The position numbers and the translations under genes were made by a program. Positions 6,799-57,684 of a DNA stretch of 64,000 nt are shown here, one piece after another. Each line of letters starts with the position of its first letter. Position 1 is the first letter of the stretch. The DNA is from Flavobacteriales bacterium (GTDB lineage Bacteria; Bacteroidota; Bacteroidia; Flavobacteriales_F; PHOS-HE28), in NCBI GenBank assembly GCA_047601855.1, contig JASGIM010000003.1:576797-640796 (forward strand). Direction: 5' to 3'. The notes below the pieces were generated by a model. That model had not been told where the DNA came from. It ran no database searches and saw only the letters and a program-made list of their open reading frames with translations.

Positions 6799-9405
<2,607 letters not shown>

Positions 9406-9420
9406 TCACCTTTGGGATAT

Positions 9421-9460
9421 AGAAGAAGAAGCCCCGGCCAATGGCCGGGGCTTCTTCTTT
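9421..9460 (+). terminator. Intrinsic terminator of clpC
   Basis: AAGAAGAAGCCCCGGCCA-A-TGGCCGGGGCTTCTTCTTT long inverted repeat. Confidence 0.8.
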
Positions 9461-9572
9461 GGCATTGTAAGAGGACCTGGCGATCGGCACACATCCGCCT
9501 GTTGATCGTCCGTGCGAGGGGGCTGTTGGATGGGCCGGGCCTGCGAGCACTTTTGAGGTCCAGCATCGCCCC

Positions 9573-9947
9573 ATGCAAGACCGCCGCACCACGCTCCTGA
9601 TCGAACGGCTGAAAAGCCTCGCCGCCCGCAAGAACCGCTTCTCCTATGATGTGCGCGGCGATGCCTTCGTCACCAGCGACATCATTGCTCCCTACAGCCC
9701 CGGCGCAGCGGGCCGCACCGACCTCGTGAGCGTGCTGGAACATGCCTTGGCGCACGACGCCATCGTTTCCGGGGTGAAGGACCCGGAGAGCGGACAGGTA
9801 CGGTTCACCAGTTGCCGCCTGTTCACGGACATGGCCAATGCCCTGCGTTTCGCCCGTGACCAGCACCAGACCGCCGTGTACAACTGGAACCGCCAGGAGG
9901 AAGTGCTGGTGCCGGTAGCCAGCGTGGAGAAGGTGCAGGAGAACTAG
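9573..9947 (+). CDS. Hypothetical protein (124 aa)
   Basis: ATG start, host-like codon usage, fills the gap between the clpC terminator and the convergent operon. Confidence 0.7.
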   Translation: MQDRRTTLLIERLKSLAARKNRFSYDVRGDAFVTSDIIAPYSPGAAGRTDLVSVLEHALAHDAIVSGVKDPESGQVRFTSCRLFTDMANALRFARDQHQTAVYNWNRQEEVLVPVASVEKVQEN

Positions 9948-9962
9948 ATCCTTCCGCCGGAC

Positions 9963-10610
9963 CTACCACATCCCGTCCTCGTTGGACTTGATGAACCGGG
10001 TGCTGAACCCGAGGCCCACCGTGAGGAAACGGTAGGGTGCGTCCCGGTCCTTGCGTCCAGGGAACGACTCCAGTCCGATGACCCCGGGTCCGAACGAGGC
10101 GGCATCCGCCTCGTATCCCAGCGTTATGCCGAAGGCCAGGTTGTCCGATGTATGCACGAAGTAGCTCGCGGAAATGCCCCAATGGAAGGCGTTCTGCTTC
10201 GCGTTGTCCGCGCAGGTGGTGCAATCCCACGTCCAGCGGGCCTGCCCGGCCTTGGCGTTCAGCTCGTAATAGGTGATCGGGCCCGTGTAATGCTCGTACT
10301 GCAACTTGCCGAAGAGCACCATCCGCCGCACTTCGCCATTGGTGATCAGCTGGGCCAGGCCATGTTCCTCCAGTCCGTACCAGTTGAACTTCGCCCCCAC
10401 GCCTACTCCCAGGCCCTTGAAAAGTGGCACCTGGAAAGCTCCTTCGACCTGTCCGAGCACTTCGGTGAGATCCCCGAACACCGGGTTCCTCAGTGGAACG
10501 GGCAGCAGCAGCAGCCCTTGGAACGACGGTTTCGGCTCCGGAAGGGTTTGGGCCTGCAGTGCGCCGTGCAGGGCGCAGGCCAGCAGCGCGGTGGCGAGTT
10601 GCCGCTTCAT
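9963..10610 (-). CDS. Probable outer-membrane beta-barrel protein
   Basis: Signal peptide ending ALQA-Q; alternating hydrophobic strands rich in G/Y/F; C-terminal LTVGLGFSTRF. Confidence 0.65.
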   Translation of the reverse strand: MKRQLATALLACALHGALQAQTLPEPKPSFQGLLLLPVPLRNPVFGDLTEVLGQVEGAFQVPLFKGLGVGVGAKFNWYGLEEHGLAQLITNGEVRRMVLFGKLQYEHYTGPITYYELNAKAGQARWTWDCTTCADNAKQNAFHWGISASYFVHTSDNLAFGITLGYEADAASFGPGVIGLESFPGRKDRDAPYRFLTVGLGFSTRFIKSNEDGMW

Positions 10611-51281: not shown

Positions 51282-51376
51282 TGGGCCGAATGCCACCGTT
51301 CACTTCGCCACTCCTGAAGAACAACACTGTCGGCCAATGGGGTTCGTGAAACTGGCGGCCATGTACATTTATGATC

Positions 51377-51985
51377 ATGAAATGCGCTCACCAACTTTGT
51401 GTGGGGGCTCTCTCGCTCCTCTTCGTTCCCATACTGCTCATCTCTTGCCATAAAGGGTTGTCGTCACCTTCAACCTGCAATGATCTTACGGTCCAGCAGT
51501 TCGATCCCGTACGGATCCTCTTTGTGCCCTGCAACAACATGAATGCACCTGTGACCGTAGCGGTTGATTCCATCGACGTGAATGCGGATGGGGTTGCCGA
51601 CCTGAAGGTGAACTATTCATCGAACGTGGAATTCCCAGGTGGTGGTGGGGCCTATTGGACCTGCTACACAACAGGCTCGGTGTTTGGTCTTGATTCCACG
51701 GAGATCGTCTATCGTCGACCCTGTCACGTGCTCTGCCAAAGTCCATTGAACCCGACCGATACGGTCAAGCCAGACGCCCATACGACCTCGTCAGCCTATC
51801 TGCACATGGTCTTCCAATATCTATGCAATTGCTATGCTTCCCCCGGAAGCATCGGCTTCATCAAACATATTGACGGCCATGCCTATTGCGGATACCTGGT
51901 CGTCACCGACACGTGGGATAAGATCCAGGTGATGCGATCAGTGATCAGCAATTGTCCAGATCAACCGGTCGCCATCTCTGAATAG
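51377..51985 (+). CDS. Cys-rich hypothetical lipoprotein (lower GC)
   Basis: Lipobox LISC; DVNADGVADL Dx[DN]xDG-like motif; many cysteines. Confidence 0.65.
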   Translation: MKCAHQLCVGALSLLFVPILLISCHKGLSSPSTCNDLTVQQFDPVRILFVPCNNMNAPVTVAVDSIDVNADGVADLKVNYSSNVEFPGGGGAYWTCYTTGSVFGLDSTEIVYRRPCHVLCQSPLNPTDTVKPDAHTTSSAYLHMVFQYLCNCYASPGSIGFIKHIDGHAYCGYLVVTDTWDKIQVMRSVISNCPDQPVAISE

Positions 51986-52150
51986 CCTGATATTGCATCC
52001 AGGCGGTCCTTTTGGCGTAATCGAACTGCACGCAGGGTCGGAAACCCTTCATTGGCGGCAATCGATCGTATCCCATCGCAGTCACCCTATGCATGCAGCG
52101 GCGCCATCGGCGACCTCTGTGGACAGACCCGTAGTACCGAACTTCGCCGC

Positions 52151-54196
52151 ATGCAACTGAAGAACTACATCGCCGGCCAATGGGTGGCCGGTTCCGGCAA
52201 GCAGGCCGAACTCGTTGACGCCAGCACGGGTGACTTGGTAGCAACCACATCAAGTGGCGGCCTGGACTTCGGCCGGATGCTTTCTTATGCGAGAGAAGTC
52301 GGCGGGCCGCCCCTGCGCAAGATGACCTTCCCCGAGCGCGGCCGCATGCTCAAAGCCCTTGCCCTGCACCTCATGGAGCGCAAGGACAAGTACTACGCCA
52401 TCAGCTACAAGACCGGCGCCACCAAGGCCGACAGCTGGGTGGACATCGAGGGCGGCATCGGCAACCTCTTCGCCAACGCCAGCCTGCGCCGCACGCTCGG
52501 CAACATGCCCTTCTACGTGGACGGCGACGCCATCAAGACCAGCAAGGAGGGCACCTTCATCGGCCACCACATCATGGTGCCCAAGGAAGGCGTGGCCGTG
52601 CATATCAACGCCTTCAACTTCCCCATCTGGGGCATGCTGGAGAAGGTGGCCGTCAACTGGATGGCCGGGGTGCCCGCCGTGGTCAAGCCCGCCACCGTTA
52701 CCAGCTACCTCACCGCCGCCATGGTGGAGGACATCATCGCCAGCGGCATCCTCCCCGAAGGCGCCCTGCAACTCATCTGCGGCGGCGCGGGCGATCTGCT
52801 GGACCACGTCACGCATCAGGACGTGGTCACCTTCACCGGCAGCGCCAGCACGGGCCGCATGCTCAAGCGCCACCACCGCATCATCGACGAAAGCGTGCCC
52901 TTCAACATGGAGGCCGACAGCCTCAACGCCATCGTCCTCGGCCCCGATGCCGTGCCCGGCACGCCCGAATTCGACCTCTTCATCAAGGAAGTGGGCCGCG
53001 AAATGACGCTCAAGGCCGGGCAGCGCTGCACCGGCGCGCGGCGGATCCTCGTGCCGCAGAACGTGATCGAGGACGTGCGGATCGCCCTCGGCAAACGCCT
53101 CGGCGGCACCGTAATCGGCGATCCCCGCGCGGAAGGCGTGCGGATGGGCGCGCTCGCGGGCCAAGCCCAACGCGATGAAGTGAAACGCGCGCTGGACGAA
53201 CTCCTCACCGGCAGCGAGATCGTCTACGGCAGCCGCGACAGCGTGGACGTGACCGGCGCCGATGCCGCCAAGGGCGCCTTCATGGGCCCCATCCTGCTGC
53301 TCAATCCCGATCCGTGGAAACAGCAGGTAAGCCACAACGTGGAAGCCTTCGGTCCGGTAAGCACGCTGATGCCGTACCGCGACCTCGACGATGCCGTGGC
53401 CCTCACCAAGTTGGGCAAGGGCTCGCTGGTGGCCACCATCGCCACGTACAACAAGGCCGCCGCGCAGCAGTTCGTGTGGGGGGCAGCCAGCCACCACGGC
53501 CGCATGCTCGTGCTGGACCGCGACATGGCCAAGGAGAACACCGGCCATGGCAGTCCGCTCGCAACGCTGGTGCATGGCGGCCCCGGCCGCGCGGGCGGCG
53601 GCGAGGAAATGGGCGGCAAGCGCGGCGTGCTGCACTACCTGCAACGCACCGCCATCCAAGGCCACCCCAGCGCCATCACCGCCATCACCCAGCAGTACCA
53701 GCAGGGCGCGGCCTTCCGCGAGACCGAGCGGCACCCCTTCCGCATGCACTTCGAGGAACTGCACGTGGGCGACACCGTCATCACCGCCAAGCACACCGTC
53801 ACCGAGGCCGACATCCACAACTTCGCCAACGTCAGCGGCGACAACTTCTACGCCCACATGGACGCCACCAGCCTCGAAGGCACCATCTTCACCGGGCGCG
53901 TGGCCCACGGCTACTTCGTGCTCAGCAAGGCCGCCGGGCTGTTCGTGGACCCCAAGAAAGGCCCCGTGCTGCTCAACTACGGGCTGGACGAGGCCCGCTT
54001 CGTAAAGCCCGTGTACCCCGGCATGACCATCGGCGTCAAGTTCACCGTGAAGGAGAAGGTGAATCAGGAGAAACGCAGCCCCGAGGATGTCGCCAAGGGC
54101 ATCGTCAAGTTCTTGGTCGATGTATACGACGAGACCGGGGAAACGGTGGCGATCGCGACGATATTGACGATGGTGAAGAAGTTGGATCAAGCATGA
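52151..54196 (+). CDS. paaZ: Bifunctional phenylacetate degradation protein PaaZ (ALDH + MaoC)
   Basis: HINAFNFP, FTGSASTG, EADSLN, KAGQRCT, EAFGPV, HGGPGRAGGGEE; MaoC SGDNFYAHMD, AHGYF. Confidence 0.95.
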   Translation: MQLKNYIAGQWVAGSGKQAELVDASTGDLVATTSSGGLDFGRMLSYAREVGGPPLRKMTFPERGRMLKALALHLMERKDKYYAISYKTGATKADSWVDIEGGIGNLFANASLRRTLGNMPFYVDGDAIKTSKEGTFIGHHIMVPKEGVAVHINAFNFPIWGMLEKVAVNWMAGVPAVVKPATVTSYLTAAMVEDIIASGILPEGALQLICGGAGDLLDHVTHQDVVTFTGSASTGRMLKRHHRIIDESVPFNMEADSLNAIVLGPDAVPGTPEFDLFIKEVGREMTLKAGQRCTGARRILVPQNVIEDVRIALGKRLGGTVIGDPRAEGVRMGALAGQAQRDEVKRALDELLTGSEIVYGSRDSVDVTGADAAKGAFMGPILLLNPDPWKQQVSHNVEAFGPVSTLMPYRDLDDAVALTKLGKGSLVATIATYNKAAAQQFVWGAASHHGRMLVLDRDMAKENTGHGSPLATLVHGGPGRAGGGEEMGGKRGVLHYLQRTAIQGHPSAITAITQQYQQGAAFRETERHPFRMHFEELHVGDTVITAKHTVTEADIHNFANVSGDNFYAHMDATSLEGTIFTGRVAHGYFVLSKAAGLFVDPKKGPVLLNYGLDEARFVKPVYPGMTIGVKFTVKEKVNQEKRSPEDVAKGIVKFLVDVYDETGETVAIATILTMVKKLDQA

Positions 54197-54204
54197 AGCA
54201 CGCT

Positions 54205-54230
54205 TGTCACATCGAGCGTAGTCGAGATGT
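54205..54230. repeat. REP-like palindrome
   Basis: TGTCACATCGAGCGTAGTCGAGATGT, same family as 20023-20077. Confidence 0.65.
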
Positions 54231-54236
54231 GGGCGT

Positions 54237-54338
54237 GCCTCCGCCTCAAATGCAGGCGGGGTTGCGCTTTCCGCTGCAAGTCCTCGGCGGCTTCGTTCCT
54301 CATCCACCTGTGGACTTTCCGCTTCAATCGCTCACGCG
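54237..54338. repeat. Structured intergenic element with an internal direct repeat
   Basis: CTTTCCGCTGCAA (54267-54279) and CTTTCCGCTTCAA (54315-54327); CCGCCT...AGGCGG and AGTCC...GGACT stems. Confidence 0.55.
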
Positions 54339-54404
54339 AACTTCAAGACGCGCGTCATACCAAAGCGAATGCCCATCTTTAACGCAACAAGGCCGATACC
54401 ACCA

Positions 54405-55460
54405 ATGACAAGCACCGCTTCAGGCATAGAGATAGGCACCATACAGATTTTCCGTATGGACTTGGCTACCAGTCAAATGGAATCCATCTCCCACACCAAA
54501 TTTGGAGACGACTTTCATCAGTATCTCACAGGGCTCATTTCTATCATCACAAATGGAAGCAGTGGACGTTCTTTCGTCTTTAGAAGTCAAACAACCGAGG
54601 TGCGTAGTCAGATACCGCTTCTCGGATCAACAGAGGATTTTGAGAGGGCTTCAACTACCATCGCTAATCGCTTGCTGAAAACTGAACAAGAGACGCAAGA
54701 CAGAATGGCTCACATGAAAGTGGAGATTCAAAAAGGAATCGTCATTCAAGCCATGGTCAATGACAATGGAATGCGACGCTACGTTTTGTGCAAGGCGGAC
54801 CATAACGAATTTCTCGACGAGAAGGAGTTCAAGAAAGGTAAAGGATTGCCGATTAAGAAGCGTGTGTATAAGGCCTTTTCCTGCATCTTGACCGAGAACG
54901 TCGACGTGAGCGATGTCATGGTCTTTGATACAAACCCGAACTTGTCTAAGTACTGGTGGAATGACTTCCTCGAGTTAGATAAGGTACATTCCGATGAAGA
55001 CAACACAGAGAATGCCTTCGAAGCAATCGATAAGGGTGTAATGAACAAGCTCAAGAAAGAACACCCACAGGACTATCTCCCGCTCAGAAACAGTCTGGTC
55101 CGTTATTTCAGGTCTAAGGACAGCTTCGATATGAACGAGTTCCTCGATGAAGCGATTGGCAACTATACACCCTATGACGAGCGCCTTGATATCGGCGCAT
55201 TGAAAAACGTTATTAGGAGTCTACCGAAGAAGAATCCCAAGAAGGTGTTCGATGAGAAGTTCACCATCGCAAAAGAACGGGTTAGGGCCCGCTTCCTCAA
55301 TACTATTAGCCTTACCCCCGACATTGATCTGAAGCTACACCGGGATATTCCTGATCTCGAGAACGTCGTCTCCGCAGTTCAAGACAGTGATGGATCGAAG
55401 TACGTAAGGATCCGTTCCGATCAGGGCTACAAGTACTTCCACGAGAGAGCCAAGAAATAA
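54405..55460 (+). CDS. Hypothetical soluble protein, possibly related to NdpA/YejK (NA37) nucleoid-associated proteins; low GC
   Basis: 350 aa, no TM; IANRLLKTE, GIVIQAM, LCKADHNEFLD, SKYWWNDFLEL pattern recalls that family (recognition by eye). Confidence 0.6.
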   Translation: MTSTASGIEIGTIQIFRMDLATSQMESISHTKFGDDFHQYLTGLISIITNGSSGRSFVFRSQTTEVRSQIPLLGSTEDFERASTTIANRLLKTEQETQDRMAHMKVEIQKGIVIQAMVNDNGMRRYVLCKADHNEFLDEKEFKKGKGLPIKKRVYKAFSCILTENVDVSDVMVFDTNPNLSKYWWNDFLELDKVHSDEDNTENAFEAIDKGVMNKLKKEHPQDYLPLRNSLVRYFRSKDSFDMNEFLDEAIGNYTPYDERLDIGALKNVIRSLPKKNPKKVFDEKFTIAKERVRARFLNTISLTPDIDLKLHRDIPDLENVVSAVQDSDGSKYVRIRSDQGYKYFHERAKK

Positions 55461-55464
55461 GGGC

Positions 55465-56982
55465 ATGGGCTACATGCTACGACTTCTGGCCCCTTGCTTC
55501 CAAAACCTTGAGTTAATCGAAGCCTCCGAGAACGATATCACACATACATCGCGCTTCAGAGCGTCCGGCCTTCAAGCAATAGCACCTAGTCATGACGGAG
55601 CCCCGGTTCTTCTTCAGGAGTCCGATTCCATAACAGTATCCGCGCAGTTCGAGAACTCTGACCCCGAGGTGTATTCTTCAATTGGTGTGAATCCAAATTG
55701 GACCGAGTTCATAACTGCTCTATCAAACGATGCGTCTTTTCACCCAGAAGGGTCGTTGTCGATTGAGGTTCGAATCCAGAAGACACAAAATACTGATGAA
55801 TTATCTCTCTATGACTTGTCAGTATTTTCAGAAACCATCTTCAACTTGACCCTTTCCCAATCGTTGAGCGTATTCAATCGAGTTCTGTCTAAATCAGGTT
55901 TCCGGTGTTTCCGAGTCGTTGACCTAAACGCAGCGTTCGCGACATCAAGTATGCGCTATCTCCCCAACGGAGTGTTGAGAGAAATTAATCCGCCCAAAGA
56001 CAGATCCAAACGTATAGATAGTGTTTCTGGAGTCAGCTACTTCCAGAAGGACGACGAATGCCGGCTTCTTCCGAGTGATTTTCAGGTCATTGAGGGGCTA
56101 TGTCCAGATCAGAAACTTGTGCAGGCGTTCAGCAGCCTTGAACTCCTTCTTTCCCTTGCCCAGATTGTCGACATCAGTTCCTTGAAAGATGACATGTTCG
56201 CCTTCAAGTTGAACGGCCTGAGAACTACGAAGGGAAATATTGACGTTAAGAGTGCTCCTCCACGACATCAAGGCCAGTACGCTCGCATACATGAATGGAT
56301 TTATAGTGGAGGGGTTACCATCGATAAGATTGGCTTGGCCCGCAACATCATATCGCTCCATTTAGAACGACCCGATGGATTGGACCTCAAAGGCCGTCCG
56401 TATGACGCAATTCTGTCAGGGTACAAAATCTACGAAAAGCAGAACATCAAGACTTACATTGAACTGCGGAATAAAGTCTCTGAGCAACTGATTGACTTCA
56501 ACAATCGAGCGAGCAAGGTTGTCCAAGACTTCGCTTCTGGCTTTCAGCGGAGTGCATTGGCATTATTGAGTTTCTATACGACCGCAATCGTGGTAAAAGT
56601 TGTGTCCAAGGACTTGAGTCACTTGTTCAATACTGATATCACATTGCTCTCAATCGCATTCCTAGCAGCATCAATGATGTACTACTGCGTGTGTAAATGG
56701 GAAGTAAGACAGCAACGCGTACGGTTCATATCCAGCTATGAACAAATGAAAGAACGTCAGTCTGACATTCTTGATGACGAGGACGTTCGCCGCATTCTTA
56801 ACGATGATAAAGAGCATAATCTTAATGTGAAATACATCGATGAGAAGATTCGCGTCTATCAGAACTTATGGCTCGGTCTAGTGACTCTGCTCTTCTGCGC
56901 AACGCTTGCATTGTATGTGGTATTCATGATTGATGTACTGGTGGGACATCCAATCATTCGCTTCATCATAGGAAACCCGTGA
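55465..56982 (+). CDS. Hypothetical membrane protein with C-terminal coiled coil and 3 or more TM segments; low GC
   Basis: 505 aa, 4 nt after the previous stop; hydrophobic segments ALALLSFYTTAIVVKVV, ITLLSIAFLAASMMYYCVC, LWLGLVTLLFCATLALYVVFMI. Confidence 0.75.
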   Translation: MGYMLRLLAPCFQNLELIEASENDITHTSRFRASGLQAIAPSHDGAPVLLQESDSITVSAQFENSDPEVYSSIGVNPNWTEFITALSNDASFHPEGSLSIEVRIQKTQNTDELSLYDLSVFSETIFNLTLSQSLSVFNRVLSKSGFRCFRVVDLNAAFATSSMRYLPNGVLREINPPKDRSKRIDSVSGVSYFQKDDECRLLPSDFQVIEGLCPDQKLVQAFSSLELLLSLAQIVDISSLKDDMFAFKLNGLRTTKGNIDVKSAPPRHQGQYARIHEWIYSGGVTIDKIGLARNIISLHLERPDGLDLKGRPYDAILSGYKIYEKQNIKTYIELRNKVSEQLIDFNNRASKVVQDFASGFQRSALALLSFYTTAIVVKVVSKDLSHLFNTDITLLSIAFLAASMMYYCVCKWEVRQQRVRFISSYEQMKERQSDILDDEDVRRILNDDKEHNLNVKYIDEKIRVYQNLWLGLVTLLFCATLALYVVFMIDVLVGHPIIRFIIGNP

Positions 56983-57684
56983 TTTGAGTCTCTGCTAGGC
57001 ATCAGGCTCCGTACACGCTTCACAGATTAGCGCCAGCTTGCACCATTCGGCAAGTGGGGTCTACAGAACACAAGGAAGAGCCTACTCCTTTACGACGTGC
57101 CCGTCATGCGGGTACCACCCTATACACCGGAGCCAGCAGCAGCCCGCGCCCATGAGAGCGCACACTGTGCGTAGTCCTTCACTTTTGTCCTGAGGAAGTG
57201 TGGTAGTTTCCCTTGAGGAAGGACCGGCGGCATGGCCGCCTGTATGTATGTGGGAACGAAAGTACGTGGTCGGGCGGCCCCTGCAAGCAGTGCTGTGGCA
57301 TGCATGCTGGCCTCGGGTGGACAGGATACGGTCACCCGGTCCACCTGAACGACGAGTGGCACATCGGCTTGCCGAGCATATGGAGCGGCAGCACTACCCT
57401 CCGCTCCCGATCACCGGCCGATCTTTCAACATCCCTCTCCTCCTATCCCTCCGTTCGTGGGCGCGGGAACGCTGCGGCCGCCTGCCGTTCGCGGACACGC
57501 GATCGTTCAAAAGTCGTTGGGTCAACGCTCCGCGGCGTAGCAGGACACCCCTCTACCTTCGCCGCCATCGTACCCGTTGGACCAACGGAACGAACGCTTG
57601 GAGGAACGGCCTGATGACCGCGCTGGGCGTGGGAAGCAGGTCCGGACGAAGGGAACGAACAAGGAACTAGAAACACCACCACAC

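Follow-up and report, generated by a model that had tools for sequence, protein, structure and literature searches.

The stretch of DNA analyzed here, a 64-kb window (64,000 nucleotides of contig JASGIM010000003.1 from a Flavobacteriales bacterium), harbors a cassette of two open reading frames (ORFs) which probably constitutes, at odds that we place near 60%, a horizontally acquired two-gene abortive-infection system. In this system a nucleoid-associated protein (NAP) would act as sensor and a membrane protein as effector, as in the type II PANGU and DS-1 systems, which the cassette resembles. ORF1 (54405..55460, + strand, 351 aa) is predicted to encode a divergent NAP of the YejK/NdpA (NA37) type, presumed to be a DNA-bound, PagA-like sensor, and ORF2 (55465..56982, + strand, 505 aa) a membrane-anchored partner belonging to no named family, the presumed PagB-like effector. 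We favor this reading because the architecture of the cassette, the fold of ORF1, the charge and membrane layout of ORF2, the strict linkage of the two genes, their mobility and their neighborhoods all fit. An earlier note, made from the DNA sequence alone, had suggested a soluble DNA sensor triggering a membrane effector through abortive infection, a scheme that two published reports have since demonstrated for the type II PANGU and DS-1 architecture and that may, by analogy, hold here as well. The same note described the pair as uncharacterized and assignable to no named system, a statement that these two systems have made out of date: pairs of a NAP sensor and a membrane effector are already published and validated in E. 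coli, and the present pair appears to be a sequence-divergent example of this kind from Bacteroidota.

The start of ORF1 was set at the internal ATG at 54405, since its homologues are 337-346 aa long and align from residues just after this codon; the alternative start at 54369 (54369..55460) would give a protein of 363 aa. As had been read from the DNA, the two genes are tightly coupled, with a gap of 4 nt (TAA-GGGC-ATG), and lie between a PaaZ-like gene (52052..54196), which displays Pfam Aldedh and MaoC domains, and a gene encoding a ParA ATPase (Pfam AAA_31, E 1.3e-67). The low GC content reported for the cassette was confirmed, about 0.46 against 0.64-0.65 in the flanks (0.461 in ORF1 and 0.459 in ORF2, compared to 0.653 in the upstream gene and 0.641 in parA). 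The difference is wider at third codon positions (GC3), with 0.58 and 0.51 in ORF1 and ORF2, respectively, versus 0.88 in the upstream gene and 0.95 in parA, and the sliding GC profile dips to 0.43-0.49 from about 54400 to about 57000, in a genome with an overall GC content of 0.639. Likewise, the absence of an enzyme or mobility family was borne out by profile scans with Pfam, PADLOC, NCBIfam and PHROG, in which neither ORF1 nor ORF2 matched any such family.

According to a recent preprint (Li et al., April 2026, bioRxiv 10.64898/2026.04.06.716658), PANGU systems are two-gene operons which combine a YejK-like NAP with an effector. In the type II systems, exemplified by PANGU-Ecu from E. coli, the NAP Pag2A is accompanied by the transmembrane effector Pag2B, whose predicted structure comprises an acidic N-terminal "DNA-mimicking" (DMK) domain and a C-terminal transmembrane region. 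The E. coli type II system is reported to lower plaque formation by T4 or Bas34 by 3-4 logs through abortive infection, both genes being needed; Pag2A leaves the nucleoid upon T4 infection and binds the isolated DMK domain with a dissociation constant (KD) of 19 nM, and the way in which Pag2B is activated "remains to be determined" in the words of the preprint. The cassette shares with type II PANGU, as described there, a YejK-like gene in first position followed by the effector gene, at a distance (4 nt) well inside the less than 40 bp by which these operons are defined, and ORF2 combines, as described for Pag2B, an acidic N-terminal region with C-terminal hydrophobic helices. Linkage to defense islands and a spread across phyla, including sporadic occurrences in Bacteroidota and Desulfobacterota, are further features that the preprint gives for type II PANGU and that the family of the cassette shares. 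The two differ in that binding, nucleoid release and protection were shown for the E. coli system, whereas the cassette comes from a high-GC Bacteroidota genome. Type I PANGU, composed of the NAP Pag1A and the GRel toxSAS Pag1B, also pairs a YejK-like sensor with an effector, to whose acidic "DNA-mimicking" domain the sensor binds; however, in the same source this effector is a soluble nucleotide pyrophosphokinase, and no such domain was found in ORF2 in the Pfam scan.

The second published counterpart, DS-1 (working id D390), was found with DefensePredictor (DeWeirdt et al., Science 2026, PMC13092281) and comprises an E. coli NA37 protein (391 aa) and a hypothetical protein as its partner (404 aa); it was validated as defensive in E. 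coli and replicated. As in the cassette, the NAP gene of DS-1 comes first and its partner begins 3 nt later, with residues 269-404 marked as transmembrane. Inspected by eye only, the DS-1 partner has the membrane layout of ORF2, in which a charged loop (about 60 residues long in DS-1) separates two closely spaced hydrophobic helices from a third hydrophobic one, and the short motifs ahead of the helices are loosely similar to those of ORF2. In contrast, the DS-1 NAP carries an N-terminal zinc ribbon which ORF1 lacks, and the DS-1 partner, as given in the same report, is about 100 residues shorter than ORF2. One gammaproteobacterial genome carries, besides a pair of the present family on contig C16, a second NAP gene (G422:C87:59472-60269, - strand) with a partial match to the DS-1 NAP model (90.8 bits, compared to a cut-off of 330); therefore, two modules of the NAP type can coexist in one genome.

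The assignment of ORF1 to the YejK type, proposed earlier from short motifs, proved real, being marginal by sequence and clear by structure. The AlphaFold model of ORF1 (mean predicted local distance difference test score, pLDDT, 80.6) has as its best Foldseek match the structure of E. coli YejK (9be2; E 1.4e-6, probability 1.00), and in a VIA comparison 290 of 335 residues were aligned with a Z of 14.8, the two-domain fold extending over the whole protein; the next match reached a Z of 5.1. The root-mean-square deviation of this superposition, 11.7, reflects domain movement, and the structural alignment retains about 10% identity. YejK acts on DNA as a dimeric clamp that has an electropositive pore and no sequence specificity (Schumacher et al. 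2024, PMC11229321); it is similar to ORF1 in whole-protein fold and in length. Unlike ORF1, E. coli YejK is encoded by a stand-alone housekeeping gene beside rplY and yejL, with no membrane-protein partner in an operon. The ORF1 family displays 14 alignment columns with at least 90% lysine or arginine, one further listed column being a histidine in the window, and ORF1 matches the family phrog_30064 (E 3.5e-39); a search of solved structures with the ORF1 sequence profile returned no match. Taken with the model, ORF1 is best described as a divergent, borderline branch of NA37 by sequence, for which the predicted structure clearly indicates a YejK fold.

No family in Pfam, PADLOC or NCBIfam matched ORF2 at E<=1, and its sole family match is the unnamed phrog_32650 (E 2.4e-46). 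Its model (pLDDT 83.2) displays an alpha/beta region up to about residue 310, followed by long helices at 312-380, 390-435 and 446-494. The N-terminal region (residues 1-175; 55465..55989, + strand) is a candidate "DNA-mimicking" domain, with a net charge of -9 and a pI of 4.67 in the window, and each of the 32 aligned members is acidic here, with pI values of 4.18-5.16 and a median net charge of -11. The best-conserved stretch of the family corresponds to residues 278-299 (56296..56361, + strand), in which W278, G283, D287, K288, G290, L291, R293, N294 and I295-L298 are invariant among the 32 sequences of alignment A1; the W, D, K, G, R and N are retained without exception in the 17 sequences of the divergent alignment A3. 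In the C-terminal membrane region (residues 363-503; 56551..56973, + strand), a pair of neighboring hydrophobic helices is predicted, separated from a third one by a charged helical loop of about 55 residues. The hydrophobic segments (363-381, 391-410 and 467-503) were located on the Kyte-Doolittle scale, with a 19-residue window and a threshold of at least 1.6; a laxer scan adds residues 221-237, which the model places in a helix enclosed by the N-terminal region. Three membrane segments are accordingly the best count from scale and model, if not a certain one, and this agrees with the three or more anticipated at the outset. A basic stretch following the second hydrophobic segment is consistent with a cytoplasmic location of both the loop and the N-terminus.

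The structural searches with ORF2 added little to this picture. Foldseek returned no PDB match to the model at E<=1e-3, and a search of solved structures with the ORF2 sequence profile gave just chance myosin rows (E about 0.5). The matches of both VIA runs were set aside as uninformative, consisting of generic helical bundles superposed on residues 307-505 or thereabouts (among them designed bundles, a designed nanopore and, at 11.0, ClyA; best Z 13.0-13.2), a Z range which the notes of VIA itself call uninformative for long helices. One of the 17 divergent ORF2 relatives displayed a faint SLATT_4 match (E 0.064), too weak to use.

Both proteins belong to a widespread pair. A word-indexed search identified 78 relatives of ORF2 and 47 of ORF1, mostly in Bacteroidota, and an exhaustive profile search of a library clustered at 50% identity brought the ORF2 family to 1,166 representatives at E<=1e-3, 748 of them at E<=1e-30; among the 150 ORF2 relatives listed, nearly all are full length (480-550 aa). 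Named members include Desulfosporosinus, Pseudomonas and Prevotellaceae, and full-length structural twins of ORF2 are present in the ESM Atlas (TM-score 0.83-0.87), Bacillota and Pseudomonadota being the commonest phyla of their clusters. Altogether the family ranges over Bacteroidota, Bacillota, Pseudomonadota, Thermodesulfobacteriota and Verrucomicrobiota. Class-level sampling around a betaproteobacterial match found it in 3 of 400 genomes, and two further proteobacterial loci derive from this sampling. No match to ORF1 or ORF2 was obtained by tblastn against phage records, to ORF2 in a plasmid collection, or to the two proteobacterial loci by blastn against 5,426 complete E. coli genomes; E. 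coli K-12 likewise had no match.

Co-occurrence of the two genes, which the earlier note had proposed as a check, was complete: in all 46 distinct loci examined (40 from species-representative genomes, here numbered with the prefix L, that of the window, two proteobacterial and three on viral contigs), the ORF2 homologue is immediately preceded, in the same orientation, by a homologue of ORF1. The genes lie between 101 nt of overlap and 14 nt of separation, mostly at -4, -1 or +11 nt as judged from crude ORF calls. Pairwise distances of the two proteins are correlated over 41 intact pairs (r 0.925, a value reached in none of 2000 Mantel permutations and inflated by shared descent); the five loci with broken copies were dropped from this set, as was L053, a duplicate of L040. 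Among the 607 flanking ORFs, no further gene recurs at a constant position, and the pair fits a single co-inherited unit. Broken copies, in which either gene or both are disrupted, occur in 5 of the 40 genome loci (L001, L013, L029, L030 and L040). In L013 of Dyadobacter luteus (7877-10004), an insertion of about 1.1 kb interrupts the ORF1 homologue, and in L001, a Flavobacteriales metagenome-assembled genome (MAG) with the closest relative of the ORF2 of the window (64% identity), both genes are broken and a type IIG restriction-modification (R-M) enzyme adjoins them. An intact pair is also present on a 4.4-kb contig of a "Promethearchaeota" MAG (L027), among basal bacterial rows in the ORF2 tree; this contig is more likely mis-binned than the product of a transfer to archaea.

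The neighborhoods of the pair point in the same direction as its architecture. Of the 607 flanking ORFs, which were predicted by crude longest-ORF calls, the 295 within four genes on each side of the pair in the 40 genome loci were scanned with the PADLOC models at E<=1e-15. At least one match was found at 24 of the 40 loci, in line with the earlier expectation of defense islands; this raw count falls to 21 when the generic or partial matches at L010, L031 and L039 are dropped. As a rough yardstick obtained by another method, the PANGU preprint (bioRxiv 10.64898/2026.04.06.716658) reports a DefenseFinder system within 10 kb for 8.2% of NAP operons and for 4.2% of the NAPs that stand alone. Complete-looking Gabija (GajA/B) and AbiE systems are found at L011 and Hachiman (HamA/B) at L030, and the other defense neighbors include type I, II and IIG R-M systems, GmrSD-type enzymes, bSEFIR, a retron/DRT-type reverse transcriptase and several PDC candidates. 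Among the Pfam neighbors, integrases, relaxases, coupling proteins and conjugative-transposon markers appear in many loci, and plainly metabolic neighbors are found at L003-L005, L013, L031, L037 and L040.

The pair is lower in GC than its flanks in 38 of 41 loci. In the ORF2 tree, the copy of the window is located in a clade of ten Bacteroidota rows (support 100/99) in which orders are mixed, on a long and compositionally deviant branch. The ORF2 family was detected in none of 24 genomes of other species of the same genus and in none of 16 other genomes of the class that were searched, and the cassette is therefore interpreted as a recent horizontal import. In five congeners, the 9-12 kb upstream of parAB contained no homologue of paaZ, of the peptidase or of a 204-aa ORF that precedes the PaaZ-like gene in the window, and an empty site could not be demonstrated there.

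Based on the published systems, we infer each functional step at this locus, including the effect of ORF2 on the membrane, by analogy. In healthy cells ORF1 would reside on the chromosome as a YejK-like DNA clamp. An infecting phage that degrades or displaces the host DNA would free the clamp, which could then bind the acidic N-terminal region of ORF2, the latter being tethered to the inner membrane by its three putative C-terminal helices. Binding of the clamp would activate ORF2, with a loss of membrane integrity or energization, and the infected cell would no longer support phage growth.

Several results weigh against this reading. The cassette itself is located in housekeeping surroundings, between the paaZ-like gene and parAB, and not in a defense island; no PADLOC-model neighbor was found among the genes scanned at the locus of the window, and 16 of the 40 genome loci likewise have none within four genes. 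The similarity of ORF1 to NA37 (PF04245) by sequence is limited, with an E of 8.2e-5 and 22.6-22.7 bits, under the gathering cut-off of 24.6 bits; only 5 of 24 aligned ORF1 relatives reach NA37 at E<=1e-3 (best 8e-7), and an hhalign comparison of the ORF1 family alignment with the single E. coli YejK sequence, a weak template, gave a non-significant probability of 0.3. Moreover, ORF1 is not basic overall, its own pI being 6.7 and the median of its family 5.9. ORF2 is likened to Pag2B by description only, and its family may be Cluster 2 of the preprint, another of its clusters or none of the ten. The NCBIfam models of DS-1 do not extend to the pair: NF053868 (DS1_1_antiphage, cut-off 330 bits) has no match at E<=1 to ORF1 or anywhere in the genome of the window, NF053869 (DS1_2_antiphage, cut-off 315 bits) has none at E<=1 to ORF2 or to any of its 17 divergent relatives, and neither model matches the pair in the genome of the window or in four other family-carrying genomes. 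Judged from these profile comparisons, the pair lies outside the DS-1 sequence families. No model of PADLOC (2023) matches ORF1 or ORF2 either.

The earlier note had held that a match to an already described system would count against its proposal, and such a match is found at the level of architecture and is absent at that of sequence families, the DS-1 models having no match. The comparisons that it had recommended gave no match with PADLOC (2023) or DUF4868 and a score under the cut-off with PF04245, while the structural comparison with YejK was positive.

Three other explanations have to be weighed, and we consider all of them weaker than an abortive-infection system. The pair could be an accessory module of mobile elements, in which a membrane-tethered DNA-binding complex anchors, partitions or excludes DNA, thus serving the maintenance of integrative and conjugative elements (ICEs) or prophages, or entry exclusion. 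Many loci are in fact carried by conjugative or integrative elements, with a relaxase, a coupling protein, DUF3945/DUF4099, integrases or a serine recombinase nearby (L009, L011, L017, L018, L020, L022, L024-L026, L030, L033, L034, L038 and L039); the pair is found on three viral contigs, both proteins belong to PHROG families, and YejK-type proteins bind DNA without sequence preference (PMC11229321). Nevertheless, defense genes are typical cargo of mobile elements, and the pairs at the loci with metabolic neighbors listed above, as well as that of the window, have no mobility gene nearby. The same architecture cloned alone protected E. coli from phage (bioRxiv 10.64898/2026.04.06.716658; PMC13092281), and we regard an accessory role as improbable. 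Somewhat less probable still is a toxin-antitoxin-like addiction module, in which ORF2 would be a membrane toxin restrained by ORF1 and the pair would stabilize its carrier DNA without dedicated phage sensing. Such a role could account for a tight operon of overlapping or abutting genes, for their occurrence as mobile, low-GC cargo and for the five broken loci, as is often the case with costly modules, but these loci display no bias toward retaining an "antitoxin". Furthermore, in the tested PANGU systems neither gene is toxic alone and the NAP activates its partner rather than neutralizing it (bioRxiv 10.64898/2026.04.06.716658).

The third explanation, a relationship to Kiwa with rearranged genes, in which ORF1 would take the place of KwaB and ORF2 that of the membrane sensor KwaA, is very unlikely. 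Kiwa also combines a membrane protein with a soluble one, and KwaB chains (9mrx_D, 9mtn and 9nyu) are the next-ranked Foldseek matches to the ORF1 model after YejK, with E-values from 5.7e-3 to 3.1e-2. However, VIA superposes KwaB on residues 5-191 of ORF1 with a Z of only 3.8-4.3, within its stated noise range, compared to 14.8 over the whole protein for YejK, and the PADLOC models of KwaA and KwaB (DUF4868) match neither ORF at E<=1. In Kiwa, moreover, the membrane protein is small and encoded first. The earlier decision to set Kiwa aside thus holds. A distant common N-terminal fold of KwaB and NA37 proteins is hinted at in these comparisons, at scores that are at noise level.

If the abortive-infection system proposed here is active, immunity based on a NAP sensor and a membrane effector would extend to Bacteroidota, with families that PADLOC 2023 and the NCBIfam DS-1 models miss. 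The ORF2 family is large and crosses phyla, so that many "hypothetical" gene pairs would receive an annotation from a profile of this family, and its invariant core, together with the confident model, provides concrete residues for mutation. For this genome, the cassette represents a clear, recent and self-contained horizontal acquisition.

The cassette is bordered on each side by a GC-rich dispersed intergenic repeat, as the mention of adjoining repeat elements in the earlier note had indicated; dispersed copies were matched to both intergenic flanks. The "up" type, at the left edge (54205..54350, + strand), has five weaker copies in the genome with 72-93% identity, one of just 28 nt, and the "down" type, at the right edge (57125..57300, + strand), has two further copies with 79-82% identity. 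The two repeat types may mark an insertion hotspot or the boundary of the cassette. Eight low-GC islets of at least 2 kb are present in the genome, and that of the cassette and a second one are among the three largest, at about 3.5 kb each. These two share the same two bounding repeat types, and on this ground capture of cargo specifically at the repeats can be considered. A wider hypothesis, possible but on the doubtful side, is that ORF2, with no fewer than 1,166 clusters at 50% identity, represents a large effector lineage of its own, which would share no ancestry with DS-1B and perhaps none with Pag2B. It would have converged independently on an "acidic bait plus three-helix membrane anchor", the W-x4-G-x3-DK-x-GL-x-RN core would be a switch or an active site, and cargo of this kind would be captured at GC-rich intergenic repeats.

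The second islet (G000:C3:~733000-735900; L059 2387-5557) is located about 100 kb away, with a GC content of 0.44-0.52. Both of its repeat copies were aligned to those of the cassette, the "up" copy being in the same orientation as at the cassette and the "down" copy inverted. It contains ORFs of 582 and 314 aa with no Pfam family, and a faint ZorE/HNH-like match (2.6e-4). Elsewhere, the "up" copies at C3:1258849 and C2:1012820 are also immediately to the left of lower-GC sequence, whereas the copy at C4:76888 is not. Within the "up" repeat of the cassette there is a sub-threshold match resembling Flavo-1 RNA (54256-54346, - strand; 28.3 bits, where the gathering score is 42, and E 0.0082), and no Rfam family matched at gathering score anywhere in the window. 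A scan for promoters and terminators gave counts at the level of shuffled sequence.

Among the neighboring genes, the one following parA looks ParB-like by eye. The 204-aa ORF (51371-51985, + strand) shows a smaller GC dip (GC 0.52, GC3 0.62); it had no match in Pfam, PADLOC, NCBIfam or PHROGs and, as noted above, no homologue upstream of parAB in the five congeners. Its N-terminus appears lipoprotein-like by eye, with a hydrophobic stretch followed by a cysteine, and this ORF may be another small foreign insert.

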